From Mobula hypostoma (Eukaryota): DNA of 64,000 bases. The stretch spans positions 102,984,001-103,048,000 of the forward strand of contig NC_086097.1 in NCBI RefSeq assembly GCF_963921235.1, given 5' to 3'. Under the pieces are notes generated by a model. That model was not told where the DNA came from and ran no database searches. It was given only the letters and a program-made list of their open reading frames with translations. Below, piece by piece: positions 1,446 through 61,682 of this stretch. Position numbers and translations under genes: made by a program. The first letter of the stretch is position 1. Each line of letters starts with the position of its first letter.

Positions 1446-1546
1446 CTAGTCCTGACGAAGGGTCTCGGCCTGAAACGTCGACTGCACCTCTTCCTACAGA
1501 TGCTGCCTGGCCTGCTGCGTTCACCAGCAACTTTGATGTGTGTTGC
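1446..1546 (+). mobile_element. Penelope-derived hammerhead mini-element
   Basis: Matches the Penelope 3' terminal repeat. TSD TAGTATCTT at 1437-1445 and 1547-1555. Confidence 0.85.
1447..1484 (+). ncRNA. Minimal type I hammerhead ribozyme (intact core)
   Basis: TAGTC CTGACGA AGGGTCTCGGCCT GAAA CG TC GACTG: stem I TAGTC/GACTG, core boxes CUGANGA and GAAA, stem II GGGU-CUCG-GCCU, GUC cleavage triplet. Confidence 0.8.
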
Positions 1547-1604
1547 TAGTATCTTTCGGTTGTGTGTGATATCCCTGCCACGGCTAGCTTGCTGATCTTA
1601 AAAA

Positions 1605-2680
1605 CATAAGACAAGTCATGTGGTAGTATTCGTGGATTTTTCAGAAATTGGATGGCAGAAGGGACAAAGCTGTTCCTAAAATGTTGAGTGCATGTTTTCA
1701 GGCTCCTGTACCTCCTCTGTGAAGGCAGGAATAGAAAGCATGTCAGATGTTGAGGGTCCCTGATGATGAATGCTGCATTCTTAATGCAGGGGCCTATGAT
1801 GGAGCTTGCTGAGTCTACAACCTACTGCAGGCTCTTTTGATCCTGTGCATTGGAGCTTCCATACCGGGCAGTGATGCAATGAGTCAGAGTGCTCTTCTTG
1901 GTACAACTGTAGAAATTTGTTAAGTTATTTTCTGACATATCAATTCTCCTTCAACTCCTAATGAAGTATAGCTGCTGGTGTATTTTCTTCATGTTCTGCC
2001 CAGGAAAGAAGCTTTGAGATGATGTCGTCCCAGGAACTTGAAGCTGCTTACCTTTTCCACTGTTGACCCTTCAGTGAGAACTGGTGTGTGTTCTCCAGAC
2101 TTCTCTTTCCTGAAGTCCACAATCAATTCCTTGGTCTTATTGGCATTTAGTGCATCTGTCTTGCTCTTGTATACTACGTCATCGCTATCTGAAATTCTCC
2201 CAACAAAAGTCATGTCCAGCAGCGAATTTATAGATGGCATTTGAGCTGTGCCTAGCTACGTTGTCATAAGTTGAGAGAGTAGAACAATAGGCTAAGCATG
2301 CTTTATGTAGGTGTGCTTATGTTGATTGTCAGAAAGGAGAAGATGTTATTACCGATCTGCATTGACTGGTTCACGATGAGGAAGTCAAGGGTCTAATGCA
2401 GAGAAAGGTACAAAGGACCAGGATTTGATGCTTGTTGATTAGTGCTGAACAGCCATCTTTAATCAATAACCAGCAGTCTGGTGTAGATATTGCTGTTGCT
2501 AGGTGGTCTAAGGCCGAGTGGTGAATCCATGAAGTTGTGGCTGCTATAGACCTGATGTGCAGTAGGAAAATTGCAATGGATCCAGGTCCTCGCTTAGGCA
2601 AGAGTTAATTGTAGTCTTAACCAACTTCTCAAAGCACATCATCATCATCATCGGTGTCTGGAACAGCATCTTTAAGGAAG
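1605..2680 (-). mobile_element. Rex1/Babar-like LINE RT fragment
   Basis: LNANKTKELIVDFRK...VEKVSSFKFLG in ORF 1989-2240. Degenerate. Confidence 0.75.
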
Positions 2681-2876
2681 TCATTGTTTTCATTGGATAA
2701 AAGATGGAGAAATATTGTGTAGGTTCTTTGTGTTTTAACTTGGTGCTCTTACTTATCCTTGCCCTAGCACTGAGATTGTAAACAACAGGAATACTGCAGA
2801 TGCTGGAAATTCAAGCAACACACATCAAAGTTGCTGGTGAATGCAGCAGGCCAGGCAGCATCTGTTGAAAGAGGCG

Positions 2877-2914
2877 CAGTCGACGTTTCAGGCCGAGACC
2901 CTTCGTCAGGACTA
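2877..2914 (-). ncRNA. Minimal type I hammerhead ribozyme (intact core)
   Basis: Reverse complement reads TAGTC CTGACGA AGGGTCTCGGCCT GAAA CGTC GACTG. Confidence 0.8.
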
Positions 2915-3203
2915 ACTGAAGGAAGAGTGAGTAAGGGATTTGAAAGTTGGAGGGGGAGGGGGAGATCCAAAATCTTAGGAGAAGACAGGAGGGGGAGGGA
3001 TAGAGCCAAGAGCTGGACAGGTGATAAGGGATACGAGGGGATCATGGGACAGGAGGTCCGGGAAGAAAGACAAGGAGGTGGGAGGGACCCAGAGGATGGG
3101 CAAGAGGTATATTCAGAGGGACAGAGGGAGAAAAAGGAGAGTGAGAGAAAGAATGTGTGCATAAAAATAAGTAGCAGATGGGGTACGAGGGAGAGGTGGG
3201 GCC

Positions 3204-3735
3204 TTAGCGGAAGTTAGAGAAGTCGATGTTCATGCCATCAGGTTGGAGGCTACCCAGACGGAATATAAGGTGTTGTTCCTCCAACCTGAGTGTGGCTTCA
3301 TCTTTACAGTAGAGGAGGCCGTGGATAGACATGTCAGAATGGGAATGGGATGTGGAATTAAAATGTGTGGTCACTGGGAGATCCTGCTTTCTCTGGCGGA
3401 CAGAGCGTAGATGTTCAGCAAAGCGGTCTCCCAGTCTGCGTCGGGTCTCGCCAATATATAAAAGGCCACATCGGGAGCACCGGACGCAGTATATCACCCC
3501 AGTCGACTCACAGGTGAAGTGTTGCCTCACCTGGAAGGACTGTTTGGGGCCCTGAATGGTGGTAAGGGAGGAAGTGTAAGGGCATGTGTAGCACTTGTTC
3601 CGCTTACATGGATAAGTGCCAGGAGGGAGATCGGTGGGGAGGGATGGGGGGGACGAATGGACAAGGGAGTTGCGTAGGGAGAGATCCCTGCGGAATGCAG
3701 AGGGGGGGGAGGGAAAGGTGTGCTTAGTGGTAGGA
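3204..3735 (-). pseudogene. Penelope-like GIY-YIG endonuclease domain with Cys-rich linker (Neptune-like), 5' truncated
   Basis: CKRNKCYTC linker, then VIYCVRCSRCGLLYIGETRRRLGDRFAEH...LEEQHLIFRLGSLQPDGMN. Confidence 0.88.
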
Positions 3736-3879
3736 TGTACTCGCGTACATCTGCTCTCACTCCATCCTCCCGCCACCCCACTAGGAATAGGGTTCCCCTG
3801 GTCCTCACCTACCACCCCACCAGCCTCCGGGTCCAACATATTATTCTCCGTAACTTCCGCCACCTCCACGGGATCCCAC

Positions 3880-4263
3880 AAGTGCTACACATGCCCTTAC
3901 ACTTCCTCCCTTACCACCATTCAGGGCCCCAAACAGTCCTTCCAAGTGAGGCAACACTTCACCTGTGAGTCGACTGGGGTGATACACTGCGTCCGATGTG
4001 GCCTTTTATATATTGGCGAGACCCGACGCAGACTGGGAGACCGCTTTGCTGAACATCTACGCTCTGTCCACCAGAGAAAGCAGGATCTCCCAGTGCCCAC
4101 ACATTTTAATTCCACATCCCATTCCCATTCTGACATGTCTATCCACGGCCTCCTCTACTGTAAAGATGAAGCCACACTCAGGTTGGAGGAACAACACCTT
4201 ATATTCCGTCTGGGAAGCCTCCAACCTGATGGCATAAACATCGACTTCTCTAACTTCCGCTAA
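3880..4263 (+). pseudogene. Penelope-like GIY-YIG endonuclease domain (second arm)
   Basis: VIHCVRCGLLYIGETRRRLGDRFAEH...DFSNFR*, with small deletions relative to the left arm. Confidence 0.85.
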
Positions 4264-4554
4264 GGCCCCATCTCCCCCTCGTACCCCATCTGTTACTCAT
4301 TTTTATGCACACATTCTTTCTCTCACTCTCCTTTTTCTCCCTCTGTCCCTCTGAATATGCCTCTTGCCCATCTTCTGGGTCCCCCCGCCCCCCTTGTCTT
4401 TCTTCCTGGACCTCCTGTCCCATGATCCTCTCACCTTTTGCCTATCACCTGTCCAGCTCTTGGCTCTATCCCTCCCCCTCCTGTCTTCTCCTATCATTTT
4501 GGATCTCCCCCTCCCCCTCCAACTTTCAAATCCCTTACTCACTCTTCCTTCAGT

Positions 4555-4592
4555 TAGTCCTGACGAAGGGTCTCGGCCTGAAATGTCGACTG
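4555..4592 (+). ncRNA. Minimal type I hammerhead ribozyme (GAAAUGUC variant)
   Basis: Core boxes intact. C>T change at the CpG of the ACGU stem III palindrome. Confidence 0.7.
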
Positions 4593-4864: not shown

Positions 4865-7695
4865 AATGGTGATGTTTTGCGGGCAGCTCACAAAGCTACT
4901 AGATACTCTTCTGAGCTACGATTGACACAACCTGCAGCCTGTAATTTCACATTATGAAACTTGCTGTCCAAACCTACTAATGATTTTAGGATCTCCTGAA
5001 GGATTTGGCAAACTTGATTCCAGGAATGCAGATGCAGTGCCTTGAAGTGGACTAAGGTCAGCCATCACCAGACTGTAAACCAGATTAAAGCATTACCATT
5101 TTCAAGCATCCTCTTCGACAATGCCCTGTCTCTGGAGAATAAGACTGAGAATCTAAGGGTAAGATTGCTGTATCAGAGGGAAATGGAGGATTGCTGAGTT
5201 CTGTTTCACTGAGTCATGGCTCACTTATCCATCACCGGATGGATTAAACTGTAGAACATGCAGTGGGGGGCTCTTTCATAAACTCTTGGGCGTAGTGGCT
5301 TGTTGCACTCTTGTTCTTCCAAGCTGGAATATCTAATGATTAAGTGCTGTCTATTCTACTTGCTGAGTGAGTTCTCTTCAGTGATCCTGATTGCAGTTTA
5401 CATACATGCAAAGGCAGATGTTAAGCAAGCACTCGATGTATTGAGTGCCATGATGAACAAACGAGAAACAGCCTGCCCGGATGCCTTTCACATTCTCACT
5501 GAGCTCTTTAATCAGGCTTGTTTGAGGAAATTATTGTGCAATTACCATTAGCACATCATCTGCAGTACCAGGTCCCAACACTCAACCAATGCTACATTAC
5601 TGTTCTACCTCTAGACTGCATTTCAGGACATCTGATCATCTGACTTCCCTCCCCTTACCTGTATACAGGTAGAGGCTAAGATGCAAGGCACCAGAAGTAA
5701 GAACAAAGAGGTGGTTACAGGAGGCAGAGGAGCAGCTTTGGACCATGTTCAGGGACTATTCAGAGGACCAGAATGAATACGCCACAGTTGTAAAGATGCA
5801 CATGGACAAGTGTGTACCTGTGAAATTATTCGGTCTAACCCAACCATGAGCATTGGATAAACCAAGAGATCCAAAATCTGCTTGGGGCTAAAATTGGTGG
5901 TGTTCAAGTCTGGTGACCCAAGATAGTATAAAAGGACCAGGTATAACCTCCAGAAGGCCATCTCACATCTGAAATGGCAGTTCCACACCAAACTGGAAAC
6001 ATAGAATATGCTTAACAGCTGTGGTAGGGCTTGAATGCTATCATTTCCTACAAAGCAAAACCAAGCAACATAGGTGACAACAAGGTGAGCTCAATGCCTT
6101 CTATCACAAACAGGAGAAAATCTGCAGATGCTAGAAATCCAATCAACACATACAAAATGCTGGAGGAGCTCTTCAGGTCAGTCAGCATCTATGGAAAAGA
6201 GTACAGTTGACATTTTGGCTGAGACCCTTCATCCGGACTGGAGAAGAATGATGAACAGTTAGAGTAAGAAGGTGGGGGGAGGGGAGGAAGAAACACAAGG
6301 TGATGGGTGAAACTGGGAGAGGGGGAGGGATGAAGAAAAGAGCTGAGAAGTTGATTGGTGAAAGAGATACAGGGGTGGAGAAGGGTGAATGTAATAGGAG
6401 AGAACAGAAGGCCATGGAAGAAAGAAAAGGGGGAGTTGATGGGCAGGCAATGAGATAAGGTGAGAGAGAAGAATGGGGGGGGGCATTACCGGAAGTTCGA
6501 GAAAGTGCTGTTCATGCCATCAGGTTGGAGGCACCTAGATGGAATACAAGGTGTTGCTCCTCAACCTCAGTGTGGCCTCATCACGACAGTAGAGGAGGCC
6601 ATGGACTGACATGTCAGAATAGGAATGGGAAGTGGAATTAAAATGGGTGGTCACTGGGAGATCCTACTTTTTCTGGTAGACAAAACATAGGTGCTTTGCG
6701 AAGTGGTCTCCCAATCTATGTCAGGTCTCACTGACATACAGTTTGTGTCAATGCCTTCTATGCTTGTTTTGACTGACAAAATATGGTAGCTTAATGAATT
6801 CCCACAGCCCCCATCAAACCTATGATTTCAGTCTCTGACGCCAATGTGAGAGCATCTTTCAGGAGGGTGAACCCACGGAAAGAATCTTCCCAAGATGCGG
6901 TACGTGGCAGAGTACTGAAGACGTGCCAGTCAGCTGGCTGGAGTGTTTACTGACATGTTGAACCTCTTGCTTCAGGTGTCTGAGGTACTCACCTGGTTCA
7001 AGTAGGCTTTAATCATACTGGTGCCCAAGAAGAACTGTTGTCCAATGGCAGTTGCATCCATTGTGATGAAGGGCTTTGAAAGGTTGGTCATAAAATGTAT
7101 CATCTCCTGCCTAAATAGTGACTTGAATCTGCTTCGATTTGCCTACTCTCACAACCTGTCAACAACAGATGCCATTTCATTTGTTCTTCAATTGGCCTTG
7201 GAATATCTGGCTAGTGAAAATGCATACATCGGAATGCTCTTCATTGACTACAGCTCAGCATCAACACCATCATCCTCTCAAAGCTAATTACTAAGGTCCT
7301 AGACGTAGGCCTCGATACATCCTTGTGTAATTGGATCCTTAATTTCCTCACTTGCAGAACCCAGTCATTATGGAGTAGCAATAATATCTCTACAATCGGC
7401 ATCAGCACAGGTACGCCATAAGGCTGTGTGCTAAGAGCAGGGTGCTACATGCTTTATACTTATGAATGTGATGCTAAGTACAGCTCCAATGCCATATTTA
7501 TGTTTGCTGGTGACACCATTGTTGGCCGAATCAAAGATTGCGGTGAATTGGTATACAGGAAGGAGATTGAAAATCTGGTTGAGTGGTGCCACAACAACTC
7601 AACGTCAGCAAAATCAAAGATCTGATTATTGACTACAGGAGAAAGAAATTGAGGGTTCATGAGGTCCAGGGGTCAGTAACATCCTGGGTCCCAGT
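4865..7695 (+). mobile_element. Decayed near full-length Rex1/Babar-like LINE (APE + RT)
   Basis: EFSSVILIAVYI (endonuclease), MKGFERLV...FAY...STTDAI...LFIDYSSA (RT). Interrupted by a Penelope insertion at 6105-6747. Confidence 0.8.
6105..6747 (-). mobile_element. Older Penelope-like 3' fragment with degenerate hammerhead (about 6203-6240)
   Basis: GIY-YIG C-terminal sequence plus terminal repeat. 14 bp TSD TCAATGCCTTCTAT at 6091-6104 and 6748-6761. Confidence 0.85.
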
Positions 7696-7759: not shown

Positions 7760-9430
7760 CTTGTGTTCAAAGTAACATTTATTAACAGAGAACATGCATG
7801 TCACCACATACAACCCTGAGATTCTTTTTCCTGTGGGTATACTTAACAAATCTATAGAACAGTGACTATAAATCGGATCAATATGCAACAAGCTGTCCAA
7901 ATGCAAATACAAATAAATAGCAATTAATTAGGAGTATCAAATAACAAGATAAAGTGTCCTTAAAGTAAGACAATCAGTTGTGGGAACACCAGAAATAGTG
8001 AGTATGTTCTTGAACCTGGTGGTGCAAGTCCTGAGGCACCTGTACCTTCCACCTGATGGTTGTAGCGAGAAAAGAGCATGGCCTGGGTGGTGAAGATCTT
8101 TGATGATGGATGCTGCTTTTCTACGGCAACATTTCATGTAGATGTGCTCAATGGATGGGAGGGCTTACCTGTGATGTACCGGGCTGAATCTACTACCTCT
8201 TGTAGGACTTTCTGCCATAATGCGGTCAGTCAGTACACTTTCCATCACACATCTTTAGAAGTTTGCCAAGGTTTTGATGACATGCCTGCAGACTCTTGAG
8301 GAAGTAGAGTTGCTGTTGTACTTTCTTTGCAATTATGATAGGTCCAGGACAGTTCCTCGGAGATAGTGACACCCAGGAATTTAAAGTTACTGACCCTCTC
8401 TAGCTCTGATCCTCCAATGAGTACTGGTTTCCCGGTCCCGATGTCTACAATCAGTTCCTTGGTCCTTTTGACATTGAGTGAGAGGTTGTTGTTATTATAC
8501 CACTCAGCCAAATGTTCAGTTTCTCTCCTGTGTGCTGTATCTCACCACCTTTGATACACCCTACAACAGTGGTGTCATCAGCAAACTTGGATATAGTGTT
8601 GGAGCAGTACTTAGCCACACAGTCATAGGTGTAAAGTGAGTAGAGGAGGGGGCTAAACACACATCCCTGTGGTGCTCCTTTGCTGATGGAGCTTATGGAG
8701 AAGATGTTTGTAGCCAATTTAAATTGGTGGGGGCCTGCAAGTGAGGAAATCCAGGGTTTAATTGCACAAGGGGCATTGAGGCCCAGGTGTTGGAGTTTTC
8801 TGATTAGTTTTGAGGGGATGATGATATTAAATGCTGAGCTGTAATTCATAAGGAGCATCCTGATGTATGCATCTTTGCAGTCTAGCTGTTTCAGGGTTGT
8901 GTGAAGAGCCAATGAGATGGTATCTGCTGTAGACCTGTTGCTTCGGTAGGCAAATTGGAGCAGATCCATGTCACTACTCAGACAGGAGCTCAAAATGCTT
9001 GAACACCTGCCTCTCAAAACACTTGATCACTGTGGATATAAGTGCCATTGGCAAAAGTCATTGAGACAGGTCGCCACACTCTTGGGCACTGGTATGATTC
9101 AAGCCTATTTGAAGCAGGTGGGTACCACATGCTGAAAGGGTGAGAGATTGAAGATCAGCACAGGTCTTCAGTACTCGGCTAAGTACTCTGTCTGGACTGG
9201 ACGCTTTGCATTGATTCACTCACTCTCTTGAAGGCAGCCCGCACATCTTTAGATTTTGAGACCAAAGGGACATTGGGAGACGTGTGGATGCATGATGGTT
9301 CCTCCCTGTTCTGGTGGTCAAAGAGAGCAGAGAAGGCATTGAGATAATCTGGAAGCAAAGCTCTGCTGTCCCCTATGTTGCAAGATTTAACTATGTAGGA
9401 GGTTATGACATTCAAGCTACTGCATGTCAT
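7760..9430 (-). mobile_element. Rex1/Babar-like LINE (RT and C-terminus)
   Basis: ORF 8451-9017 has GAPQGCVFSPLLYSLYTYDC...KFADDTT. ORF 7937-8137 has HPGHALFSLQPSGGRYR. Confidence 0.85.
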
Positions 9431-11521: not shown

Positions 11522-11900
11522 CAAACATGAGGAAATCTGCAGATGCTGGAATTTCAAGCAACACACATAAAAATTGCTGGTGAATGCAGCACGCCAGGCA
11601 GCATCTATAGGAAGAGGTATAGTCGACGTTTCGGGCCGAGACCCTTCGTCAGGACTAACTGAAAGAATAGATAGTAAGAGATTTGGAAGTGGGAGGGGGA
11701 GATCCAAAATGATAGGAGAAGACAGGAGGGGGAGGGATGAAGCTAAGAGCTGGCAAGTTGATTGACAAAAGGGATATGAAAGGATCATAGGATGGGAGGC
11801 CAAGGGAGAAAGAAAGGGGGAGGGGAGAATCCCAGAGGATGGGCAAGGAGTATAGTGAGAGGGACAGAGGGAGAAAAAGGAGAGAGAGAAAAATTATATA
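11522..11900 (-). mobile_element. Penelope 3' terminal repeat fragment inside CR1
   Basis: Closely matches 2781-3170. Confidence 0.85.
11620..11657 (-). ncRNA. Minimal type I hammerhead ribozyme (best-paired copy)
   Basis: Reverse complement reads TAGTC CTGACGA A GGGT CTCG GCCC GAAA CGTC GACTA, with fully Watson-Crick stem I. Confidence 0.82.
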
Positions 11901-14213: not shown

Positions 14214-14341
14214 AGGAGTCCTGACAAAGGATCTTGGCCCAAAAGGTCGACTATAGATGCTGCCTGGCCTGCTGCATTCACCAGCATTTTTTGTGTGTGT
14301 GTGTGTTGCTTGAATTTCCAGCATCTGCAGAATTCCTCGTA
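14214..14341 (+). mobile_element. Penelope-derived hammerhead mini-element (degenerate core)
   Basis: agtcctgacaaaggatcttggcccaaaaggtcgact...cagcatctgcagaattcctcgt. TSD TTTGGAAAAAC at 14203-14213 and 14342-14352. Confidence 0.82.
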
Positions 14342-30582: not shown

Positions 30583-30766
30583 TATTAACTAGAGTGATTT
30601 TTTTAAACTGAAAGTAAGGATTATGCTGGATACCAAAAATGTAAATTTTGGATACTGACAGCTAGACTGCAGAGTTTTTAGGAGAATGGCATTGAGAGTA
30701 TTGTTCTCACAGTTGGTATTATCTCAGTTGGCTGAATAGCCACCTGTATCATTTAAAAAAAATGTT

Positions 30767-43623: not shown

Positions 43624-43795
43624 TACATTCATTTTTTGGTTGAAAGTTAACAGTACCCTTCAAAAACTAGATCCAAGATGGTGAGATTTAGAAGGCTGTA
43701 CTAATCAGGAACTTTTGGCCTTGGACTGTTAGGAACAATATTTCGGACCTCAACTGAATTTTAATTGTGTTTACCTAGAAGCAGGCTTTCTGCTT

Positions 43796-43926
43796 CGTTC
43801 TGACAAAGGGTCTCGGCCTGAAATGTCGACTGCACCTCTTCCTACAGATGCTGCCTGGCCTGCTGCGTCCACCAGCAACTTTGATGTGTGTTGCTTGAAT
43901 TTCCAGCATCTGCAGAATTCCTGTTG
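43796..43926 (+). mobile_element. Penelope-derived hammerhead mini-element (CUGACAA core mutation)
   Basis: TSD TTTCTGCTT at 43787-43795 and 43927-43935. Starts at the ribozyme and ends at the full 3' terminus. Confidence 0.88.
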
Positions 43927-46469: not shown

Positions 46470-47700
46470 TTCACTCTGGATATTTGGATTATATTTGCCT
46501 ATTGGGAATGGACATTGACCTGCACTGCAAATTCCAGGAAGACCCCTGATAGCCTTGTACAATTCCAATGTATAGGATAGAGGTGGACATTTGGGCTCAG
46601 AAAAGGCTTATCACAGAATGCTCTGTATTGTACATGGTGTACTCCATACAAGGTGATTTTAGGAGATAATTGTGATTGGTTACAATTGCCTTAGACATTA
46701 ACAAATTAACAGCTTGAGAAATAGAAAGCTTCCTAGTAAATGGTTAGGATCACTGTTTGATTTGTTTGTGGCATTGAGCCCATTGCTGGGAACATCAGGA
46801 AGGACAGTGGAATAGGCTTGTATTCACTGTCGGTTTACTGATGAGCATTTGCAACTATTTTGAGCAGGCTTTGAGGGCTAGAGTCCAAGTGAAAGTAAGG
46901 CTATGCACTTGGTGTCATCTGATCCCTGATACCCCTTTTTGTCATGTCTAATTACAATGATTGGAGGATCCAGGGCATGTTCCAAAAACTGGTGTTATTA
47001 ACTGTAATAATCTATTATAAATATCTGTGAAGAAAAGGGAGAGATTGGATGCCGTATGGCGTTCATTATGAGCTAATTTAGTGTACAGCTGCATTGATCT
47101 GCGAATCGACTCCAGAACTTCTAGGTACATAGAAGTACCTGCTGAGCTTCTCTTTGTCCCAATTATTGCTGCAGGCTGTTCCTGCCACCTGAGCATTTTA
47201 TCCAGAATATTTGAGAGGCAGTGATCCACATGGAATGATTTCAAAGTACTAAACAAAAGTGGTGCTGGATTCTGTTGAATGGTTTCTGAGTAGCTGTTTG
47301 AAGTCATTTGGCAGAATGTATCATTAGAGCTTTCAAACAAGCACAATGTCAGATACCAAGCAGTGTTTAATTGTTAGTGCCCAGTGCCCTGGAGCTGGCT
47401 GTGGGAGAATGAAGTAGTCATTCATGTACTTGTGGAATGCACATTTACCAAGAAGGCTTGGAAGGAGAAGCAGTGAGGTTGATGTACATCCTGACAACTG
47501 CTCAGCATATTATCTGTTACATAGATTGTTCCCAGGGACACAGGCAAATATCAGCTGTTGCTAGAAGACCACCAGTTTACTGAAAGATGGGGTCTGAACT
47601 CAGTGACTTTGCAGTACAAAAGTTTGGTTTAAAAAAAAGCTACAGTATAAAACCATGCTATCAAGCCAAACATGACTGGGCTCTGTGGCTTTCAAAATAA
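46470..47700 (+). mobile_element. Highly decayed Tx1/L1-clade LINE fragment
   Basis: Around 47385-47475: CPGAGCG / ENEVVIHVLVECTFTKKAWK (frameshifted), a C-terminal CCHC knuckle typical of Tx1/L1 ORF2. Boundaries approximate. Confidence 0.5.
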
Positions 47701-48274: not shown

Positions 48275-48525
48275 TGTGGCGTCCCGCACATGCGGGACTC
48301 AAACTGCCATCTGGAGCCGCGGGCAGACACGCGGCAGCGTGTTTGGAACTACCTGCTTGGGGAGGACTTTCCGGGGACAGTCTGATGTCACGTCCGCCCC
48401 GCGGGTCGCAGGGGCCTATGGGAGGGAAGATTTAAGCGTGCAATTTTGAATCAGTAAAGGCATTCTGAGTTCAGATCTCTCTGCCTCCGTGTGTTTCTTT
48501 AGTGGTGCGTTTGCGCGCGACTACA
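48275..48525 (+). repeat. Gypsy 5' LTR (251 bp)
   Basis: TGTGGCGTCC...GACTACA, a direct repeat of 52285-52531. Confidence 0.95.
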
Positions 48526-48526
48526 T

Positions 48527-48541
48527 TGGTGACCCTGACAT
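48527..48541 (+). promoter_or_regulatory. Primer binding site, tRNA-Trp-like
   Basis: TGGTGACCCTGACAT versus the tRNA-Trp PBS TGGTGACCCCGACGT. Both differences are CpG-type transitions. Confidence 0.75.
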
Positions 48542-48580
48542 TCCAGATGGCATCTGCAGCCAGCGACTCAGCGACCAACC

Positions 48581-51500
48581 ATGAGTTCGAGCAACTCGCA
48601 CAGTGCGGTCTCTCTGAAGCTCCTGACCTTCTGGGCCACTCAGCCCCACATTTGGTTCGAGCAGGCTGAGGCCCAGTTCAATATCAGAGACATTACAGCC
48701 GACGCCACGCGGTACTACTACGTGGTCAGCACGCTCGACCAGGAGACGGCAGGCCGGATCATTGACTTTCTACGCCAGCTACCAACAGAGCACAGGTACA
48801 CTAAGCTTAAGGTGCTGCTGATCCGTACCTTCAGACTCTCCCGCTGCGAACAGGCGCGCGGCTCCTACACATGGACAGCCTGGGCGACCGCACGCTATCC
48901 GAGCTCATGAATGATATGCTAGCGCTCATGGACGGCCATAAGCCGTGCCTTTTATTTGAACGGTTGTTCCTCGAGCAAATGCCAGAGGACATTCGCCGCC
49001 TCCTCGCGAGTGAGGATTTCAGTGACCCACGCAGGGTCGCGGCTAAAGCAGACGTCCTTTGGCAAAGCAAGCAACATGGAGCAGCCTCCATTGGCCTAGC
49101 CACGATCGCGCGCCCCAAAGCCCAGGCCCCGCGACCGAAGTCGTCGAGACCCACGTGGAAAAAGACGAAAGTTCGGAATGATGGTGTTTCTATCACCAAA
49201 GATGGGGCTCAGGCGTACGCCGCTGCCGTCCACCAGGTGCTTTTCCGGGAAACGCCGGGGCCAGCTGTCGCTAATGGCTATGACGGCTGGCCACCGAGAC
49301 AGCCTCCTGTACCTCTGGGACCAACACTCCAGGTGGCGCTTCCTGGTAGACACCGGGGGCCGAAGGCAGCATACTCCCCCTCTGCCCCCCCGCGCCCCCC
49401 CCGAACATGGACACTTGTAATGTGGTCCCAGGCCCCAAACTCTGCTGCAAATGGCACGAGTATTTGGACGTACAGCCCGTGAACTAGCTCACTGCATTTC
49501 GGGTCCAGCTGTTTCACTTGGACTTCCACGTTGGCAGCAGTGTCATAGCCACTACTGGGGGCAGATTTCCTACGAGCCAACTGCTTCCTGGTTGACCTAA
49601 AAGGCCAGTGTTTGGTCCATGCCGAGACGTTCCAAACTTTCCAGCTCGGAGACGCCAAGCTACCGGCCCTCCACCTGGATTCCATGACCCTCTCAGGTAA
49701 CGAATTCGCCAGGGTGTTTGCGGAATTCCCCTCCATAGTCACCCCGCAGTTCTCCACGGCTGACCCCAAGCACAGTGTGCAGCACCACATCTCCACGCAA
49801 GGACCGCCGCTGCATGCCCGAGCTCGCAGGCTCCCACCTGACAAACTCCACCTTGCCAAGGAGGAGTTCCATAAGGTGGAAGAGATGGGAATCGTACGCT
49901 GCTCAGACATCCATGGGCATCCCTGTTGCACATGGTGCCCAAGTCCGCAGGAGCATGGAGGCCCTTCAGAGACTACAGAAGGCTCAACGACACCACAACC
50001 GCCAACAGGTACCCAGTACCCCACATCCAGGACTTCACGGCGAACCTGCATGGAGTGACCATCGACCTGGTCAGGGGATACCATCAGATCCCAGTGCACC
50101 CCGCTGACGTGCCCAAGACAGCCCTCATCACCCCGTTCGGCTTGTTCGAATTCCTGAGGATGCCTTTCGGTCTCAAGAATGCAGCCCAAACTTTCCAAAG
50201 GCTCATGGACTCGGTGGGACGTGGTCTGAATTTCATTTTCATTTACTTGGACGATATCCTGGTGGCCAGCAGTTCGCACCAAGAGCACGTGGCGCATTTG
50301 CGCCAGCTCTGCCAATGCCTGAGCGACCACGGACTGGCAATCAATCCGGTGAAGTGCCAGTTCCGGCTGACGTAGTTCGACTTCTTGAGCCACAGAGTCA
50401 ACCGACATGGCTCAGTTCCCCAAGCTCAGCACGGTCAAGAGCCTGCAGGAGTTCATAGGGATGGTCAACTTTTATCATCGGTTCGTGCCGGTGGTGGCAC
50501 GCATCATGAGACCCTTGTTCAGCCTGATGGCCGGCATAGCCAAAGAAGTAGCATGGGACGCGGAGTCCACGGATGCATTCGAGCAGGCCAAGGAGGCGCT
50601 GGCAAAGGTGGCCCTCCTAGTGCACCCAAGAGTCGATGTACCCATGGCGCTCACAGTCGACGCTTCTGACACAGCAGTCGGCGGAGTCCTGGAGCAGCTC
50701 GTCGAGGACCAGTGGCGACCACTCCCTTTCTTCAGCCGGCACCTACGGCCAGCAGAGGTGAAGTATAGTGCTTTTGACAGAGAGTTGCTAGTGCTCTACC
50801 TGGCTGTCCGGCAGTTTGGGTACTTCCTCTAGGGAACGGAGTTCACCATGTATACAGACCACAAGCCCCTCACCTTCGCACTGGCCAAAGTATCAGAGCC
50901 ATGGTCGGCTTGGCAGCAGAGGCACCTGTCCTTTACTTCAGAATTCACCACGGACGTCCGCCACATCGCAGGGAAGAACAACGTCGTCGCCGACACACTG
51001 TCTCGCCCTGACTCCACTCAGTAGGTATCCTCAGGAATAGACTACGCAGCACTGGTGGAAGCACAACGGTCGGACACCGAGATCACGGCTTACCGCACCA
51101 CCGCTTTGGGGCTCCAGTTGGAAGACGTCTCCGTCAGCCTGGCAGCGGATCGACTCCTGTGCGACGTGTCTTCCGGCAAACCCCGACCCGTGGTACCAGC
51201 AGCATGGAGGCGCCGGGTGTTCGACACGCTGCACAACCTAGCCCACCCGTCCATCCGGGCGTCCCATCAAGTGGGTAGCGGACAGATTCATCTGGCACGG
51301 TTTGTGCAAACAGGTCAGACAGTGGGCCAGGACCTGCATACACTGCTAGACCGCCAAAGTCCAGTGACACGTGAAGACTCCCCTCCAGCAGTTCCAACCG
51401 ACGCACAGGAGGTTTCAACACATCCACGTGGACATCGTCGGCCCCCTGCCAGTCTCCCAGGGCGCCTGGTATATCTTTACCATGGTAGATAGGTTCACCA

Positions 51501-52200
51501 GATGGCCGGAAGCCGTACCGCTCGCAGACACGTCCACTGAGTCCTACGCCAAGACGCTCATTGCAAACTGGATCGCCAGATTCGGCCTCCCAACGGACAT
51601 CACCTCTGATAGAGGGGCACAGTTCATGTCTGGTTTGTGGACAGCACTGGCGCAGCTCCTGGGCACCCAGCTACATTACACCACAGCGTACCATCCCCAG
51701 TCCAATGGTTTGGTAGAGCAATTCCACCGGCATCTCAAGTCGGCCCTGATGGCGTGCCTCCAGGACAGATGAACTTCCCTGGGTCCTACCGGGCATCTGC
51801 ACAGCCCCCAAGGAGGACCTGGACACCGCCTCGGCGCAATTGGTTCTACGGCGCCCCCCTGACTGTCCCAGGCAAGTTTGTACCAGAGGCCTGAGGTTCG
51901 GAAGAAATTCCAGCAGCGGTGCTAATGAAGCTGTGAGACAAGACAGGGACCCTGGCACCGGTCCCAACCTCTGGGTATGGTCCCACGCCATCCTTCACCC
52001 CTAAAGACCTCCGAGACTGAGTATGTTTTTATTTGCAGGGGCATGCTCAGGTCACCTCTACACCGGCTGTACGCGGGACCCTTCAAGGTGATCCGGCACA
52101 ACGGAGCCATGTGTGTCGTGGTGGTGGGTGGCCGGGAAGAGACTTTTACAGTGGACCGCCTCAAACCGGCGCACTTAGATATTGAGCAACCAGTGAGGGT
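48581..52200 (+). pseudogene. Gypsy gag-pol pseudogene
   Basis: Gag LKLLTFWATQPHIWFEQAEAQF, protease FLVDTG, RT RMPFGLKNA...YLDDILV, RNase H TVDASD...YSAFDRELL, integrase HVDIVGP...SDRG...NGLVEQFHR. Many frameshifts and stops. Confidence 0.93.
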
Positions 52201-52284
52201 ACCCGCACCGCGCCGGCAAGGCTGGCCACCCAGGCAAGCCACACAGACTGGGGGCTCCACTCTGGATGTTTCTGGGGGGGGGGC

Positions 52285-52531
52285 TGTGGCGTCCCACACA
52301 CGTGGGACTCGAACTGCCATCGGGAGCCGTGGGCAGACACACGGTAGCGCGTTTGGAACTACCTGCTCGGGGCAGACCTTCCGGGGACAGTCTGACGTCA
52401 TGTCCACCCCGCGGGTCGCAGGGGCCCATGGGAGGGGAGATTTAAGCGTGCAAATTTGAATAAGTAAAGGCATTCTGAGTTCAGCTTTCTCTTCGTGTGT
52501 TTCTTTAGTAGCGCATTTGTGCACGACTACA
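52285..52531 (+). repeat. Gypsy 3' LTR (247 bp)
   Basis: Direct repeat of the 5' LTR, preceded by the PPT and followed by the TSD. Confidence 0.95.
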
Positions 52532-53600: not shown

Positions 53601-54080
53601 GGTGGGTATATGTTTGTGTATAACAGAATGAAATAAAGCCTGATAAAATACATTGCTTGTACATCATAGTTTTTGCTCATGGTAAGTTTCCTCTGATAAT
53701 GGAGACCAAAAATTGCCTTGCAGAAAGCAGTGCTTTGTTAGCAGGTGTGACCTTGGTTGTTCTGGTTTTAACTGACATTTGTGTCCTTGATATCCTATCC
53801 TGTTCTACTGATGCTCAGTATGTGCTCAGGAATTAGTACTTCTGTTTTTCCATTAGTTATCTTATAGCCTTGCTGCTATGTTTAGATCATCATCTCTCCC
53901 ACTCTTTTGGAATAACAGAGGTTTTTTTTTGCCTTTGTCAACTTGATGTATGTTATTTTGCCTTCCAAACTAATATCTACCTTAAACAACAGGAATTCTG
54001 CAGATGCTGGAAATTCAAGCAACACACATCAAAGTTGCTGGTGAATGCAGCAGGCCAAGCAGCATCTGTAGGAAGAGATG

Positions 54081-54118
54081 CAGTCGACATTTCAGGCCGA
54101 GACCCTTCGTCAGGACTG
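54081..54118 (-). ncRNA. Minimal type I hammerhead ribozyme (GAAAUGUC variant)
   Basis: Reverse complement reads CAGTC CTGACGA AGGGTCTCGGCCT GAAA TGTC GACTG. Confidence 0.7.
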
Positions 54119-56163
54119 ACTGAAGGAAGAGTGAGTAAGGGATTTGAAAGTTGGAGGGGGAGGGGGAGATCCAAAATGATAGGAGAAGACAGGAGGGGGA
54201 GGGATAGAGCCAAGAACTGGACAGGTGATAGGCAAAAGGAGATACGAGAGGATCATGGGACAGGAGGTCTGGGAAGAAAGACAAGGGGGGGGACCCAGAG
54301 GATGGGCAAGAGGTATATTCAGAGGGACAGAGGGAGAAAAAGGAGAGTGAGAGAAAGAATGTGTGCATAAAAATGAGTAACAGATGGGGTACGAGGGGGA
54401 GGTGGGGCCTTAGTGGAAGTTAGAGAAGTCGATGTTCATGCCATCAGGTTGGAGGCTACCCAGACGGAATATAAGGTGTTGTTCCTCCAACCTGAGTGTG
54501 GCTTCATCTTTACAGTAGAGGAGGCCGTGGATAGACATGTCAGAATGGGAATGGGATGTGGAATTAAAATGTGTGGCCACTGGGAGATCCTGCTTTCTCT
54601 GGCGGACAGAGCGTAGATGTTCAGCAAAGCGGTCTCCCAGTCTGCGTCGGGTCTCACCAATATGTGAAAGGCCACATCGGGAGCACTGAACGCAGTATAT
54701 CACCCCAGCCGACTCACAGGTGAAGTGTTGCCTCACCTGGAAGGACTGTTTGGGGCCCTGAATGGTGGTAAGGGAGGAAGTGTAAGGGCATGTGTAGCAC
54801 TTGTTCCGCTTACACGGATAAGTGCCAGGAGGGAGATCAGTGGATAGGGATGGGGGGGACGAATGGACAAGGGAGCTGTGTAGGGAGCGATCCCTGCGGA
54901 ATGCAGAGAGAGGGGGGAGGGAAAGATGTGCTTAGTGGTGGGATCCCGTTGGAGGTGGCGGAAGTTACGGAGAATAATATGTTGGACCCGGAGGCTGGTG
55001 GGGTGGTAGGTGAGGACCAGGGGAACCCTATTCCTAGTGGGGTGGCGGGAAGATGGAGTGAGAGCAGATGTACGTGAAATGGGGGAGATGCGTTTAAGGG
55101 CATAGTTGATAGTAGAGGAAGGGAAGCCCCTTTCTTTAAAAAAGGAAGATGTCTTCCTTCCCTTCCACCACTATCAACTCTGCCCTTAAACGCATCTCCC
55201 CCATTTCATGTACATCTGCTCTCACTCCATCCTCCCGCCACCCCACTAGGAATAGGGTTCCCCTGGTCCTCACCTACCACCCCACCAGCCTCCGGGTCCA
55301 ACATATTATTCTCCGTAACTTCCACCACCTCCAACGGGATCCCACCACTAAGCACATCTTTCCCTCCCCCTCCCTGCATTCCGCAGGGATCGCTCCCTAC
55401 ACAACTCCCTTGTCCATTCGTCTCCCCCATCCCTATCCACTGATCTCCCTCCTGGCACTTATCCGTGTAAGCGGAACAAGTGCTACACATGCCCTTACAC
55501 TTCCTCCCTTACCACCATTCAGGACCCCAAACAGTCCTTCCAGGTGAGGCAAAACTTCACCTGTGAGTCGACTGGGGTGATATACTGCGTCCGGTGCTCC
55601 TGATGCGGCCCTTTATATATTGGCGAGACCCGACGCAGACTGGGAGACCGCTTTGCTGAACATCTATGCTCTGTCTGCCAGAGAAAGCAGGACCTCCCAG
55701 TGGCCACACATTTTAATTCCACATCCCATTCCCATTCTGACATGTCTATCCACGGCCTCCTCTACTGTAAAGATGAAGCCACACTCAGGTTGGAGGAACA
55801 ACACCTTATATTCCGTCTGGGTAGCCTCCAACTTGATGGCATGAACATCGACTTCTCTAACTTCCGCTAAGGCCCCACCTCCCCCTCGTACCCCATCTGT
55901 TACTTATTTTTATGCACACATTCTTTCTCTCACTCTCCTTTTTCTCCCTCTGTCCCTCTGAATATACCTCTTGCCCATCCTCTGGGTCCCCCCCCCCCGT
56001 TCTTTCTTCCCGGACCTCCTGTCCCATGATCCTCTCGTATCCCCTTTTGCTTATCACCTGTCCAGCTCTTGGCTTTATCCCTCCCCCTCCTGTCTTCTCC
56101 TATCATTTTGGATCTCCCCCTCCCCCTCCAACTTTCAAAGCCCTTACTCACTCTTCCTTCAGT

Positions 56164-56201
56164 TAGTCCTGACGAAGGGTCTCGGCCTGAAACGTCGACT
56201 G
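56164..56201 (+). ncRNA. Minimal type I hammerhead ribozyme (intact core), sense to the TTBK2 intron
   Basis: TAGTC CTGACGA AGGGTCTCGGCCT GAAA CGTC GACTG. Confidence 0.8.
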
Positions 56202-56404
56202 CACCCCTTCCTACAGATGCTGCTTGGCCTAATATCTACCTTTTTGTTCTTTCCTTCCTTTTTCCTGCATCTTAACACTTTTTAAATATTTGACACTTCA
56301 TGGTTCTGACCAGAGTTTCAAATACAAGCTAATATCTTCAGTATCTGCAGTATTTTGGTTTTGTTGAATGGCTACTGATAGACATGAATTGCTGGGAGAG
56401 TGCT

Positions 56405-57205
56405 GAATTTCTTAAGATCCTTCATCAGGATTGGAAAGGAAGGGTGAAGAAGCCAAAATAAGAAGGTGGGGGGAGGGGAAAGACAAGTCAGGTGATAAGT
56501 AAAGTCAGGTGGTTGGGGAAAGGGATGAAGTAAGAAGATGGGAGGTGACAGCTAGATAAAGCAAAGGGCTGGAGAAGAAGGATTTTGACAGGAGAGGAAA
56601 ATGGATCATGGAAAGAGGAAGGGCATCTGGGAGAGGCGATAGGCTGGTTGGAGAAGAGGTAAGAGGCCAAAGTGGGGAAATAAAGAAGAGGGGAGGGGGA
56701 AAGACTTACTGGAGAGAAATTGATGTTCATGCCATCAGGTTGGAGACCACCTGGACAGGATATGAGGCATTGCTCCCTCAGCCTGAGAGTGGCCTAATTG
56801 TGGCAGAAGAGGAGACAATGGCCGACGTGTCAGAATGGGATAGGAATTGAAATGGTTGGCCACTGGGAAATTCTGTTTTTTGCAGATGGACTGAGATGCT
56901 TGATAAAGTGGTCCCTCAATCTACGTTGGGTCTTGGGAGCACTTGATACAGTAGATGACTCCACCAGATTCGCAGGTGAAGTCTGCCTCACCTGGAACTA
57001 CAGTTTGGGGCCCTAAATGGAGATGAGGGAGGAGGTGTAGTATACTTCAGTCACTTCAGGGAGATTAGTGGAGAGGGACAAATGGATAAGAGAATCACAG
57101 AGGGAGCAATCCCTGTGGAAAGTGGAGAGTGGAAGGGAGCTAAAGGTGTGTTGAGTGGTAATATCCCATTGCAGATGGTGGAAGTTGTGGAGAATGATGT
57201 GGAGG
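56405..57205 (-). mobile_element. Old Penelope-like 3' fragment
   Basis: gatgttcatgccatcaggttggag... and HIILHNFHHLQWD homology to the younger copies. Hammerhead remnant near 56410-56434. Confidence 0.75.
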
Positions 57206-57257
57206 TTTATAACCAGTGAAATTTGGAATAGTGAGCAAATGATATAAGAAAGTGATT

Positions 57258-57298
57258 TGCTTGGATTTCCAGCATCGGCAGATTTCCTCGTGTTTGCG
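57258..57298 (+). mobile_element. 41-bp Penelope 3'-terminal micro-insertion
   Basis: tgcttggatttccagcatcggcagatttcctcgtgtttgcg flanked by TSD TAAGAAAGTGATT (57245-57257, 57299-57311). Confidence 0.85.
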
Positions 57299-57944: not shown

Positions 57945-59355
57945 CAAGTTCACATTTATTGACATTCAACTGTGTACATGTATATCACCAAATGAAACAA
58001 TGTTCCTCCAGACCAAGGTGTACAATCAGTACATGTGAGTCGCCCATAACAGAAAGTAATATTACCAGAAATAAATGAACGAACAGTAAAATATATTCCA
58101 GAAGATTTGACATTTAGCATGAGTTACATTTACAACGCAAGTTTAAAAAGTAAACAGTAGAGCACTACTGGTGCTTCATACACGGGACCTGAGTGATGGC
58201 AGGGAGTTCAGTAGTCTCACAGCCTGTTTCCCATCCAAACAGTTTTTGCCCTAAAGTTGAGTTGCTTCCTGCCTGATAGTTGGGGACCAAAGAGATTGTG
58301 ACAGAGATGGGAGGGACCTTGACAGTACTAAGGGCCCTGTGTACGCAGCGCTCCTGATAGACTTCTCTATTGGGTGAAAGAGAGACCCTGATGATCCTCC
58401 TCAGCAGTTCTCACAATCCTTTGTAGGGTCTTGCTGTCAGGTTCCTTGCAATTCCCATGTTAGGCAGTGATGCAGCTGGTCGGGACACTGTTAATGGTGC
58501 TCCTGTTAGAATGGATGGGGGGGTGGGGAGGATGGAGGATCCTCCATTGCCTCAGTCTTCTCAGGAAGTGGAGATGCTGCAGTGTTTTATTTGACTGAAA
58601 TGATGGTGTTGAGCGACTAAGTGAGTTGTCTGTTATGTATGTTCCCAGAAACTTGGTGCTCCTATCTCTCTACAGAGAAGCAACGAGGAGTAGTCATCTT
58701 CCTAAAGTCCACGATCATCTCTTTAGTCTTTCCCACATTCAGAATCAAGTTATTGTGCTCGTACCATTTTACCAGCTGCTCTGCTCAGCTCTGCCTCCTC
58801 TCTATATGCCACTTGTAGTGGTTGTTGATGAGGTCAGCCACTGTTGTCATCAGCGGACTTGATCTGGATCTAGCATACAGTAATGCAACAGCAATGTGAG
58901 AAGTAGCAGGCTAAGTATGCAGCCCCCAGGAGAGCTGGTGTTTAGTGTAATGGAGCTAGAGATACCGCTGCCAGCATGTACTGACTGTGGTGTTTTTGTC
59001 AAGAAGTCCAAGATCCAGTTACAGAGAGGTATTGACACTCAGCAAGGACAGATTACATATCAGCTTCTGGGGGATTATCATATTCGATACCATTTTCTAG
59101 GTGGGACAGGATGGAGTGGAGGGCAGAATCTATGGCATTGTCAATAGACTGATTTGAGTGATAGCGAACCAGAAAGGGTCCAATGTAGCAGGAAGATGGG
59201 ATTTAATGTCACTGGACTGTAGTCATTAAGGCAGGGTACTGTTGCCCTCATGGCCATTGGGTTGATGGTGGCCGCCTTGAAACCTGTGAGGACTGGGACT
59301 GTTCCAGAGAGATGTTGAAGATGACTGTTAGAATCTCTGATAACTGTGCTGCACA
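57945..59355 (-). mobile_element. Rex1/Babar-like LINE fragment
   Basis: [10 protein letters not shown]...[14 protein letters not shown] (58850-59038) and PGQVLRVCAAQLSEILTVIFNISL (59248-59523). Confidence 0.75.
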
Positions 59356-60019
59356 GACCCTCAGCACCTGACCAGGTTTGTGATCTGGCCCTGAATAGGG
59401 TCTTCCTCTCATCAACTCCAACCAGAAAGAGTTCCTATTCCTTGGGGGAAGAGGGGGCCATAGTTTGTTCCTGTTTGGACCAGTGATAATTCCCAGGATG
59501 TTGATGGTGAACGAACTGAACATTATTGAATATCACGGGAGTAGCGGATTTAGTGTTTTTTTGAAATTATCATTGGCATCTTATTGCATCTAGGTTATTT
59601 GCACCTTATGAACCCGAGTGAGGACATTGTATAGGTTTTTGTCATATGTGGGTTTGAAGTATTGCATTCCCTCTGTCAATTCCTTTCCCATCTCATCAAA
59701 TGAAACAATCCATGCCTCCATGCAGCTAGAATTAGATAATGTTTAGACACAGATTGATGTGACTCTCTAAGTATTGAAATTATACAAGTTCTAGGCAGTG
59801 AGCATCTTAGACAAGAATGAGCTTAACCACAGTTGATAGTATTGCTGTTGTTTATTAAATGGAAATGTAACCGGATCAGCTACTTGTATATTTTGCTTAC
59901 ATGAGGAAGTAGGGAGCTGAGTATTCGCTAATGAGTGAATCATCGCTTGATATCTCAAAAGCTTTCTACTATCTGCAGTACAAAAGCTGGAAGTGTGTGC
60001 ATGCAGTCACACACACCTC

Positions 60020-61105
60020 AATAATATGCAAATGCTTTGAGAGGCTGGTCAAGGATTACATTTGCGACTTACTACCACCCAAACTGGACTCCCTACAATT
60101 CGCCTACTAACATAACTGATCGACAGACAACGCAATAGCCACTGCTCTATATACCGTTCCTGCACATCTGGAGAAGGATGCTTATGTGAGAATGCTGTTC
60201 TTAGACTACAGTTCAGTATTCAAGACCATAATTTCATCCAGGCTCAACAAGAAGCTCAGAGACCTCGGCCTTGACCCTGCCTTGTGCAGCTGGATCCTGG
60301 ACTTCCTGTCAGATTGCCAGCAGGTGGTAAGAGTGGGCTTCCTCATCTCCACCCCTCTGACTCTCAACACAGGAGCTCCTCAGGGCTGTGTACTAAGCCC
60401 CCTCCTTTACTTCCTGTATACCAATGACTGTGTCACCACCCATAGCTTTAATCTGCTAATTAAATTTGCCGACAACACTACATTGATTGGCCTATTCTCA
60501 AACAATAAAGAGGTGACCTACAGGGAAGAAGTCATCTCTCTGACACAGTGGTGCCAAGAAAACAATCTCAGTGTCACAAAAACAAAGGAGTTGGTTGTGG
60601 ATTACAGGAGGAATGGAGACTGGCTAATCCCTATTGACATCAATGGATCTGGGGTTGAGAGGGTAAACTGCTTTAAGTTCCTCTGCATCCACATCACCAA
60701 GGACCTCACATGGTCTGTACACACCAGTTGTGTGATGAAAAAGGCACAACAGCGCCTCTTTCACCTCAGATAGTTGAGAAAGTTTGGTATGGGCCCCCAA
60801 ATCCCAAGAACTTTCTACAGGGGCACAAAGACAGGTGTGCATAAAGGGCCTGAAGGATCATTGGGGACCCGAATCACCCCAACCACAATCTATTCCAGCT
60901 TCTTCCGTCAGGCATCAGACCGATTAACTAACGCTGATTTGAGTATGTTTCTATGTACATTGACTGTTCTATTTATTATAAATTATTACAAATTACTGTG
61001 ATGGCACATTTAGACGGAAACGTAACGTAAAGATTTTCACTCCTTGAGTATGTGAAGAGTGTAAGAAATAGTCAATTCAATACTCTTCAATTCAATTCAA
61101 TTCAA
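60020..61105 (+). mobile_element. Rex1/Babar-like LINE RT/3' part with (TTCAA)n tail
   Basis: ORF 60186-60773: LFLDYSS...TGAPQGCVLSPLLY...KFADNTT...KKAQQRLFHLR. The tail ttcaattcaattcaa lies near 61073-61105. Confidence 0.9.
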
Positions 61106-61131
61106 CAACTCTCAACACCATCCAGGGCAAA

Positions 61132-61682
61132 GCAAACACAAGGAATTTTGCAGATGCTGGAAATTCAAGCAACACACATCGAAGTTGCTGGTGAATGCAG
61201 CAAGTCAGGCAGCATCTCTAGAAAGAGGTACAGTCGACATTTCGGGCTGAGACCTTTCGTCAGGACTAACCGAAAGAAGAGCTAGTAAGAGATTTGAAAG
61301 TGGGAGGGGGAGATCCAAAATGATAGGAAAAGACAGGAGGGGGAGGGATGGAGTCAAGAGCTAGACAGGTGATTGGCAAAAGGGATATGAGAGGATCATG
61401 GGACAGGAGGCCCAGGGAGAAGGAAAAGGGGGAGGGGTGGAAAACCCAGAGGATGGGCAAGGAGTATAGTGAGAGGGACAGAGGGAGAAAAAGAGAGAGA
61501 GAGAGAGCGAGAAAGAATGTGTGTATATAAATAAATAACGGATGGGGTACGAGGGGGAGGTGGGGCATTAGCGGAAGTTAGAGAAGTCAATGTTCATGCC
61601 ATCAGGTTGGAGGCTACCCAGACAGAATATAAGGTGTTGTTCCTCCAACCTGAGTGTGGCTTCATCTTTACAGTAGAGGAGG
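61132..61682 (-). mobile_element. Penelope 3' fragment with hammerhead motif (61231-61268)
   Basis: Terminal repeat plus the end of the GIY-YIG coding sequence. Reverse complement has TAGTC CTGACGA AAGGTCTCAGCCC GAAA TGTC GACTG. Confidence 0.85.

Follow-up and report, generated by a model that had tools for sequence, protein, structure and literature searches.

Minimal hammerhead ribozyme motifs in an abundant Penelope-like element of Mobula hypostoma: copy shapes suggest that uncut RNA is the usual template

The stretch of DNA analysed here (termed the window) comprises 64,000 nucleotides (nt) of the Mobula hypostoma genome, positions 102,984,001–103,048,000 of NC_086097.1 (NCBI RefSeq assembly GCF_963921235.1). 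It displays many copies of a hammerhead ribozyme motif that belong to a Penelope-like element (PLE); Penelope elements are the sister group of telomerase. The locus raises the question of what the hammerhead does for the element, and of whether RNA cut at the ribozyme site is the RNA that is copied into the genome. The reading that we consider probable is that the hammerheads are in the end repeat of an abundant PLE, likely of the Neptune type, whose mostly truncated copies were likely made from uncut RNA with its 5′ end usually at the front edge of the hammerhead. The shapes of the copies suggest such an uncut RNA, likely starting just before the motif, as the usual template, and sometimes small RNA rings.

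Element coordinates are given relative to the predicted cut, where 0 is the first base 3′ of GUC and negative numbers are upstream. Copy numbers refer to the M. hypostoma genome (G000, 3.48 Gb).

The original prediction described the motif as stem I (UAGUC/GACUG), then CUGACGA with an extra A, which is a bulge, stem II (GGGU-CUCG-GCCY), GAAA and the palindrome ACGU, with a predicted cut after GUC, and this anatomy is right. The CUGANGA and GAAA core and the NUH site that mark the minimal type I PLE hammerhead are present, helix I is 4–5 bp, and helix II is closed by the pair G10.1-Y11.1 after a single bulged base. The proposed palindromic helix III is found as well: ACGU is at 15.2–16.2, a monomer has no helix III, and changes in the palindrome are CpG transitions. 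The motif fits the minimal type I class point by point, as had been claimed (PMC4209133). Judged by sequence and pairing pattern, the motifs are real minimal type I hammerheads of an already published class (PMC4209133).

Variation was analysed in 278 young copies, a sample enriched for intact motifs. It is mostly CpG decay, and the sites that mark subfamilies fall outside of the core or preserve pairing. The G10.1-Y11.1 pair is G-U in 230 and G-C in 45 of these copies. The sequence GAAAUGUC had been listed as a variant of the family at 4555(+), 54081(−) and 61231(−). The three positions are correct; the family-variant reading does not hold and neutral CpG decay accounts for them. GAAAUGUC as a functional variant is rejected, as the C>T change is found in 14/278 copies and the mirror G>A change in 28/278, which matches other CpGs. 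The 61231(−) copy displays two stem II changes in addition.

Conservation was assessed with 33 older copies that were picked by BLAST with the motif itself; such picking inflates conservation, and the comparison with the spacer is the one internal control. Identity between young and older copies is 0.41 in the upstream 3′ untranslated region (UTR) and 0.39 in the spacer (+5 to +16), compared with 0.8–0.93 for the core boxes and stem I and 0.74 for the tail. In this biased sample, the core boxes and stem I are thus more conserved than the spacer across subfamilies. CGUC reaches 0.65 and stem II on its 3′ side 0.71; these lower values sit on CpG and subfamily sites. An A6C core is present in 12/69 older copies and has 189 exact matches genome-wide (L429–L440 are of this older subfamily); A6C is a natural variant that occurs in active hammerheads (PMC7151607). 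A second older subfamily (L109, L103, L184, L186 and L235) has another loop II and upstream region with the same stems and core. The minimum-energy fold predicted for the monomer is a rod in which core and cut site pair with each other (−11.7 vs −7.7 kcal/mol). No activity is predicted for the hammerhead as a monomer; cutting would require a dimer or the help of the element's protein.

The carrier was predicted to be Penelope-like and to have a very high copy number, and both statements are borne out. The repeats contain reverse transcriptase (RT) and GIY-YIG frames, and the hammerhead is in both pseudo-long terminal repeats (pLTRs), as seen in L081, L082, L085 and L095. The full unit is 3,513 nt with one hammerhead at each end and a frame of about 1,015 amino acids (L081, L082, L085). 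There is one open reading frame (ORF) that carries RT plus GIY-YIG at its C terminus; matches to Pfam RVT_1 and GIY-YIG are weak and most are below the curated cut-off. The hammerhead is located about 295 nt 3′ of the stop codon of this frame and about 130 nt 5′ of the start codon of the next unit. Tandem and inverted pLTR structure, an optional tail and a target-site duplication (TSD) are all found, as in endonuclease-bearing (EN+) PLEs. The translation displays a CX2-5CxxC linker and a CCHH endonuclease, judged against PMC8557442, where Nematis also has the linker. The carrier is likely of the Neptune clade, as assigned by these motifs. A family-wide or programmed frame shift before YIDD was considered and rejected; it is common to 26/37 copies found with a frame-shifted query, but 15/16 others are in frame.

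There are 41,517 exact copies of the 34-nt motif genome-wide and 78,402 exact matches to a 33-nt tail word. Sixty evenly spaced 10-kb stretches on three contigs (600 kb) contain 67 element ends, which gives an estimate of about 390,000 ends genome-wide. The family occupies 7.7% of these stretches and the window taken together. At two loci (L148 and L198, at about 170 kb and 2.96 Mb of G000:C1) the same foreign 45-nt flank is joined to the tail at +8, which may represent a composite element or a duplication.

If linear cut RNA were the template, copies starting at position 0 would be expected. The 5′ ends were counted in 133 young tail-anchored copies that were kept as unbiased from 224, with old copies left out. 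Only 3 of the 125 copies at risk start at 0±1. A total of 44/113 start at −20 to −46, about 0.017 per nt versus about 0.001 further upstream, i.e. a roughly 15-fold difference, and the position of this pile-up is the same for long-tail and short-tail copies. A TSD is present in 16/27 solo-scored copies of this zone by a loose script. A second sample consists of 90 leader-bearing loci that were read among 379 exact leader matches, of which 71 have a long body and 19 are mini-tandems. In the long-body loci, none of 50 upstream pLTRs starts at the cut and 4/48 start in the −20 to −46 zone, compared with 44/113 above (Fisher p 6e-5).

Single-base tests genome-wide give 1,090 matches for ends at 0, 917 at +1 and 402 at −1, and most loci read are point mutants. 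True junctions number 12/29 at 0, 6/30 at +1 and 7/30 at −1, which is a two- to three-fold local excess at 0. The 12 junctions at 0 are 11 inverted joins and one solo copy, and a shared GAC(T) microhomology explains most of the inverted ones. Among the 29 loci read at position 0 there is no genome-wide excess of solo copies that start at the cut. The genomic copies thus appear to lack a cleavage footprint and give no sign of cleaved RNA as template. Uncut RNA is also the main substrate of an anole PLE in vitro (PMC11167929). Old copies have only apparent starts at −32, owing to divergence of their upstream sequence. Splicing was rejected as the general cause of the pile-up: of 1,413 loci with a non-G at −35, 30 were read and not one shows a splice join to the element's own donors, and about a third are point mutants.

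The 3′ ends of copies are at two sites, about +65 and about +100. Head-to-head pairs were collected from all loci in hand, many of them from hammerhead-anchored searches with a bias to short pairs. All 53 pairs join one long-tail arm (+95 to +101) with one short-tail arm (+47 to +76). The two arms are of one subfamily haplotype in 38/53 pairs, where shuffling gives a mean of 9.8 and a maximum of 19. Arm lengths are coupled (40 near/near, 11 far/far and two mixed pairs), and paired arms match even far upstream, e.g. −527/−527 and −1085/−1069. The arm that extends further 5′ is the short-tail arm in 25/53 pairs, ties included, and a simple fold-back would account for this only with a subsequent deletion at the palindrome centre. 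Solo copies that have a short tail and a TSD indicate that +65 is a start site in its own right. A one-sided tail has been described in words (PMC8557442; PMC3846280), and self-priming is favored in one of these papers (PMC3846280). We infer twin priming by a dimer on one RNA.

The 19 mini-tandems among the 90 leader-bearing loci are retrozyme-like. Their join leads from the ORF leader (+169 to +275, with two near +400) back to the element end, mostly at −32 to −51. The upstream unit stays within its own junction in 19/19 (p ~3e-8 vs long loci). By eye, it ends at most about 3 nt from the junction in 7/19, which points to a physical RNA end. The junction is repeated in three, and complete hammerheads are present in two or more tandem units of L243, L244, L267 and others. 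Junctions vary from locus to locus among the 19, a single shared junction being present at two loci genome-wide, and the amplified family that characterizes a non-LTR retrozyme is not seen among them. At L243 (G000:C2:157815500-157819000) a single CpG site alternates between tandem units, possibly as the result of a later duplication of two units added to the original insertion. Larger, internally deleted tandems are found at L302 and L300, with joins from about +1090 or +1276 to −32; the upstream unit of L302 also starts at −32.

The shared junction leads from +275, directly before GTATCCTT, to −34, directly after a pyrimidine tract and CAG, without microhomology. It falls exactly on a GT-AG splice pair and is found at six places in two TSD-flanked loci. 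The units of the two loci differ at four sites, and one is 1 nt from full-length L081; the differences indicate independent insertions from different source elements. The donor sequence, RTATCCTT, has no second occurrence in the unit and agrees with U12-type examples (PMC7367187). The intron of the Drosophila virilis Penelope likewise ends at helix I (PMC4209133). Against a spliced ring are the number of loci (two) and the U2-like acceptor region. In addition, no splice join was found among 30 other −34 loci read. The first base of the donor is G or A (65 A forms; about half each in 68 sites read), which fits both minor-spliceosome forms but equally a Val/Ile change, and it carries no weight here. 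Another U12-like donor word, imperfect in sequence, is at −160 in the 3′ UTR, 125 nt upstream of the acceptor, and no join from it is seen in 30 loci read. It is conceivable, although we place it somewhat short of an even chance, that the genome records retrozymes being born: a dimeric enzyme would prime both sides of a DNA break from two fixed sites on one uncut RNA and extend to the end of that RNA at the front edge of the hammerhead, short end-repeat RNAs would become tandems by jumps or rings, and the spliceosome would have produced at least one ring (310 nt) by joining a donor of minor-spliceosome type within the ORF to an acceptor on the edge of helix I.

The following sequence of events likely produced these copies. 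Master tandems would be transcribed into RNA with a 5′ end set by a promoter or by trimming to a protected fold. A protein, likely a dimer, would bind the hammerhead-tail-leader region and cut both DNA strands about 10–15 nt apart. Two cDNAs would be primed at +100 and +65 on one RNA, each extending to the physical 5′ end of the RNA, often the front edge of the hammerhead. Joining of the cDNAs by microhomology would give inverted pairs, and sealing in of one alone would give solo copies with TSDs. On short RNAs the enzyme could cross from 5′ end to 3′ end by a jump, or circle a ring, and leave retrozyme-like tandems. Cutting by the ribozyme would be limited to dimers or to RNA assisted by protein, and the cut products would seldom be inserted. 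Selection would keep the hammerhead in master elements, likely as a weak processing ribozyme and as part of a protein-bound fold that sets the 5′ boundary. The anole PLE in vitro has two start sites, extends both strands and has a protein-assisted hammerhead (PMC11167929), and these results agree with an uncut template and two starts.

Several observations weigh against this sequence of events. The pile-up is far weaker on the upstream hammerhead of long copies, which indicates that long templates mostly run past it, and the 5′ ends scatter across some 25 nt. The BLAST-picked older copies show no double compensatory change, and an older subfamily spread with the A6C core, so full catalytic efficiency may not be needed. 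Fold-back followed by later deletion at the palindrome centre could also yield the head-to-head pairs. The Neptune assignment was made by motifs, and cleavage, transcription start and circles are inferred from DNA. Among the other explanations, the classical one holds that the hammerheads of two tandem units cut as a dimer and free a unit-length RNA, and that cut or ligated RNA is the main template (proposed in PMC4209133). Full units with two direct hammerheads 3,513 nt apart, the retained palindromic helix III, and the extension of 38/71 long copies beyond −100 into a second unit, as a ligated ring would allow, are in accord with it. Its linear branch is contradicted by the scarcity of starts at 0 (3/125 and 0/50) and by the lack of a genome-wide solo excess. 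A ring that is cut and religated would leave no scar, so the 5′-end test is blind to it. On balance we regard cut or ligated RNA as main template as unlikely, although a serious contender.

A further explanation places the 5′ end at an internal promoter at about −36, with short copies being SINE-like (short interspersed element) products of solo ends. The D. virilis Penelope has an internal promoter (PMC2377424). This explanation is compatible with a physical RNA end, of which it would be one source, but the ends are not sharp, 44/48 long copies run past the site, and short and long copies share haplotypes, so that there is no separate short lineage. The sequence TCAGTT at −38 to −33, which we take to resemble an initiator, is in its favor. 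We find this promoter doubtful as the explanation. That the pile-up marks, in place of an RNA end, the point where the RT stalls or lets go while copying its own protein-bound anchor appears improbable to us. A broad and position-locked peak that is strong beside the start sites and weak on the second pass would be explained by stalling; yet within single loci both passes stop at one locus-specific position (−155, −43, −33, −32 and +14), and the far upstream matches of paired arms (−527/−527, −1085/−1069) are not expected from a fixed stall. A similarly low probability is given to the hammerhead being a relic without catalysis, retained for no other role than that of a protein-binding fold. 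The predicted misfolding of the monomer, the spread of the A6C subfamily and the absent cut-site footprint are as a relic would have them, but across subfamilies the spacer drifts whereas the core boxes and the palindrome show conservation, weak cutting is known for related minimal hammerheads when multimeric or assisted by protein (PMC4209133; PMC11167929), and active natural hammerheads include A6C (PMC7151607). The uncut RNA with its 5′ end near the hammerhead front edge thus is the template that we prefer.

In the window itself, the original prediction listed 16 positions, and a motif or remnant is present at all 16. The copies at 1447(+), 2877(−), 11620(−), 30547(−) and 56164(+) have the intact core that was claimed for them. 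The eight copies called decayed or partial are confirmed; CUGACGA is missing from 30767 and the 3′ strand of stem I from 33113, and 56410 is a 5′ half only. A structure descriptor, one of the checks proposed, gives seven matches in the window, whereas each of 10 Markov controls gives none. The other check, a search of Rfam, did not bear out the motif, as no hammerhead family is among 19 window matches at E≤10. One copy, 39535–39604(−) with its core deleted, and two tail-only arms at 33150–33205(+) and 57257–57288(+) had been overlooked. The window has 14 element ends in 64 kb vs 67 in the 600-kb genome sample and is about twice as dense. Retrozyme-like mini-tandems are absent from the window. 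The copies of the family are as follows.

1447–1547 (+): solo short copy with intact minimal hammerhead 1447–1484, predicted cut 1479/1480 and short tail; starts at −33, 9-nt TSD
2782–3736 (−): PLE 3′ end with GIY-YIG frame, 3′ UTR, intact hammerhead 2877–2914 and long tail; left arm of a head-to-head insertion
3741–4592 (+): inverted arm that ends just 3′ of hammerhead 4555–4592 (CpG-decayed, GAAAUGUC)
6115–6731 (−): PLE end of an older subfamily, decayed hammerhead near 6203–6239
11530–11893 (−): 5′-truncated PLE end with intact hammerhead 11620–11657 and long tail
14217–14337 (+): short copy with decayed core, start at −32
30452–30584 (−): solo short copy with intact hammerhead 30547–30584 and long tail; start at −33, TSD
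30767–30853 (+): short copy with short tail, truncated within stem II (−19)
32410–33054 (−): PLE end of an older subfamily, in pieces, decayed hammerhead near 32452–32491
33045–33205 (both strands): small head-to-head insertion of a short-tail hammerhead arm, 33045–33147 (−, start at −31), and a long-tail arm, 33150–33205 (+)
33206–35167 (−): body fragments of an older PLE, RT and linker region, about 75% identity to the young family
35371–35613 (+): decayed PLE end of an older subfamily, A6C-type core
39535–41570 (−): the window's longest copy, extending from RT to tail, with loss of the hammerhead core between two GTC at about 39604
43794–43927 (+): solo short copy with CpG-decayed core and long tail; start near −28, 9-nt TSD
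53986–56230 (both strands): 2.2-kb palindromic insertion of two 1.1-kb arms head to head, hammerheads 54081–54118 (−, GAAAUGUC) and 56164–56201 (+, intact)
56400–57295 (both strands): old PLE fragments, i.e. hammerhead 5′ half near 56410–56435 (−), body 56714–57201 (−) and tail arm 57257–57288 (+)
61141–61682 (−): 5′-truncated PLE end with decayed hammerhead 61231–61268 and long tail

The core-less copy at 39604 was considered as an RT jump across a cleaved stem I. Only two such junctions are found genome-wide and it is thus an ordinary GTC microhomology deletion. Rfam matches of microRNA type at 55041–55240 are below the gathering score and mark the centre of the palindromic insertion.

The window also contains other sequences. 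A broken long terminal repeat (LTR) retroelement, presumably Gypsy-like, is at 48500–52500 (+) and displays RT and integrase frames (Pfam RVT_1 and rve). Tigger/pogo-like transposase fragments are at 38046–38507 (−; Pfam HTH_Tnp_Tc5) and, by eye, at 42771–43211 (−). RT fragments of the LINE (long interspersed element) type, from other families, are at 8451–9026, 22743–24083 and 60120–60773. An open reading frame of 141 amino acids at 46948–47373 (−) is not repeat-like, has no Pfam match and is possibly a host exon.

The motifs by themselves are ordinary and their class is known; the value of this family is the sample size. Hundreds of thousands of copies allow tests of the role of the hammerhead, of inverted insertions with a tail on one arm, and of the origin of retrozymes. 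The family had been proposed to be uncharacterised in this lineage, which agrees with a literature search that covered papers and did not extend to Repbase or Dfam. That search listed no paper on the family or on its 5′-end, pair or mini-tandem patterns.

The closest known motifs are the minimal PLE hammerheads (PMC4209133), which have been found in Neptune elements of fishes. They share the type I topology with a short helix I and a bulge between A9 and G10.1, as well as the palindromic 15.2–16.2 without a loop 3. They are also alike in occurring mostly as solo copies, with some direct pairs spaced by about 3 kb and some inverted pairs that lie close together. In the Schistosoma families helix II is 7–8 bp, compared with 4 bp here, and coelacanth and Xenopus have about 4,000 and 9,000 motifs (PMC4209133), compared with 41,517 identical copies in a young family that is very uniform. 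The one-sided tail that is described in words for Neptune EN+ PLEs (Craig et al. 2021, PMC8557442; Arkhipova et al. 2013, PMC3846280) is counted here in 53/53 pairs and tied to haplotype and coupled arm length. A 5′-end peak at the hammerhead edge is not among the features described in the available parts of those two papers. The Poseidon element PAc of Anolis (Frangieh et al. 2024, PMC11167929) resembles the present family in its two RT start sites that define the tail, the extension of both strands and the lack of ribozyme-cut ends. It is of another clade, and its start codon is inside the hammerhead, whereas it is about 130 nt downstream of the cut here.

The mini-tandems are similar to metazoan non-LTR retrozymes (PMC7229834; bioRxiv 10.64898/2026.07.22.740005) in that they consist of non-coding tandem units of 200–600 nt, with a type I hammerhead in most, and are derived from a PLE end. 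The bioRxiv report, as far as its available text goes, sampled one chondrichthyan and proposes local tandem amplification. Unlike these retrozymes, the mini-tandems carry a minimal hammerhead without loop contacts, nearly every junction is confined to a single locus, and the sample contains no amplified family. The mini-tandems look like repeated births rather than an established retrozyme.

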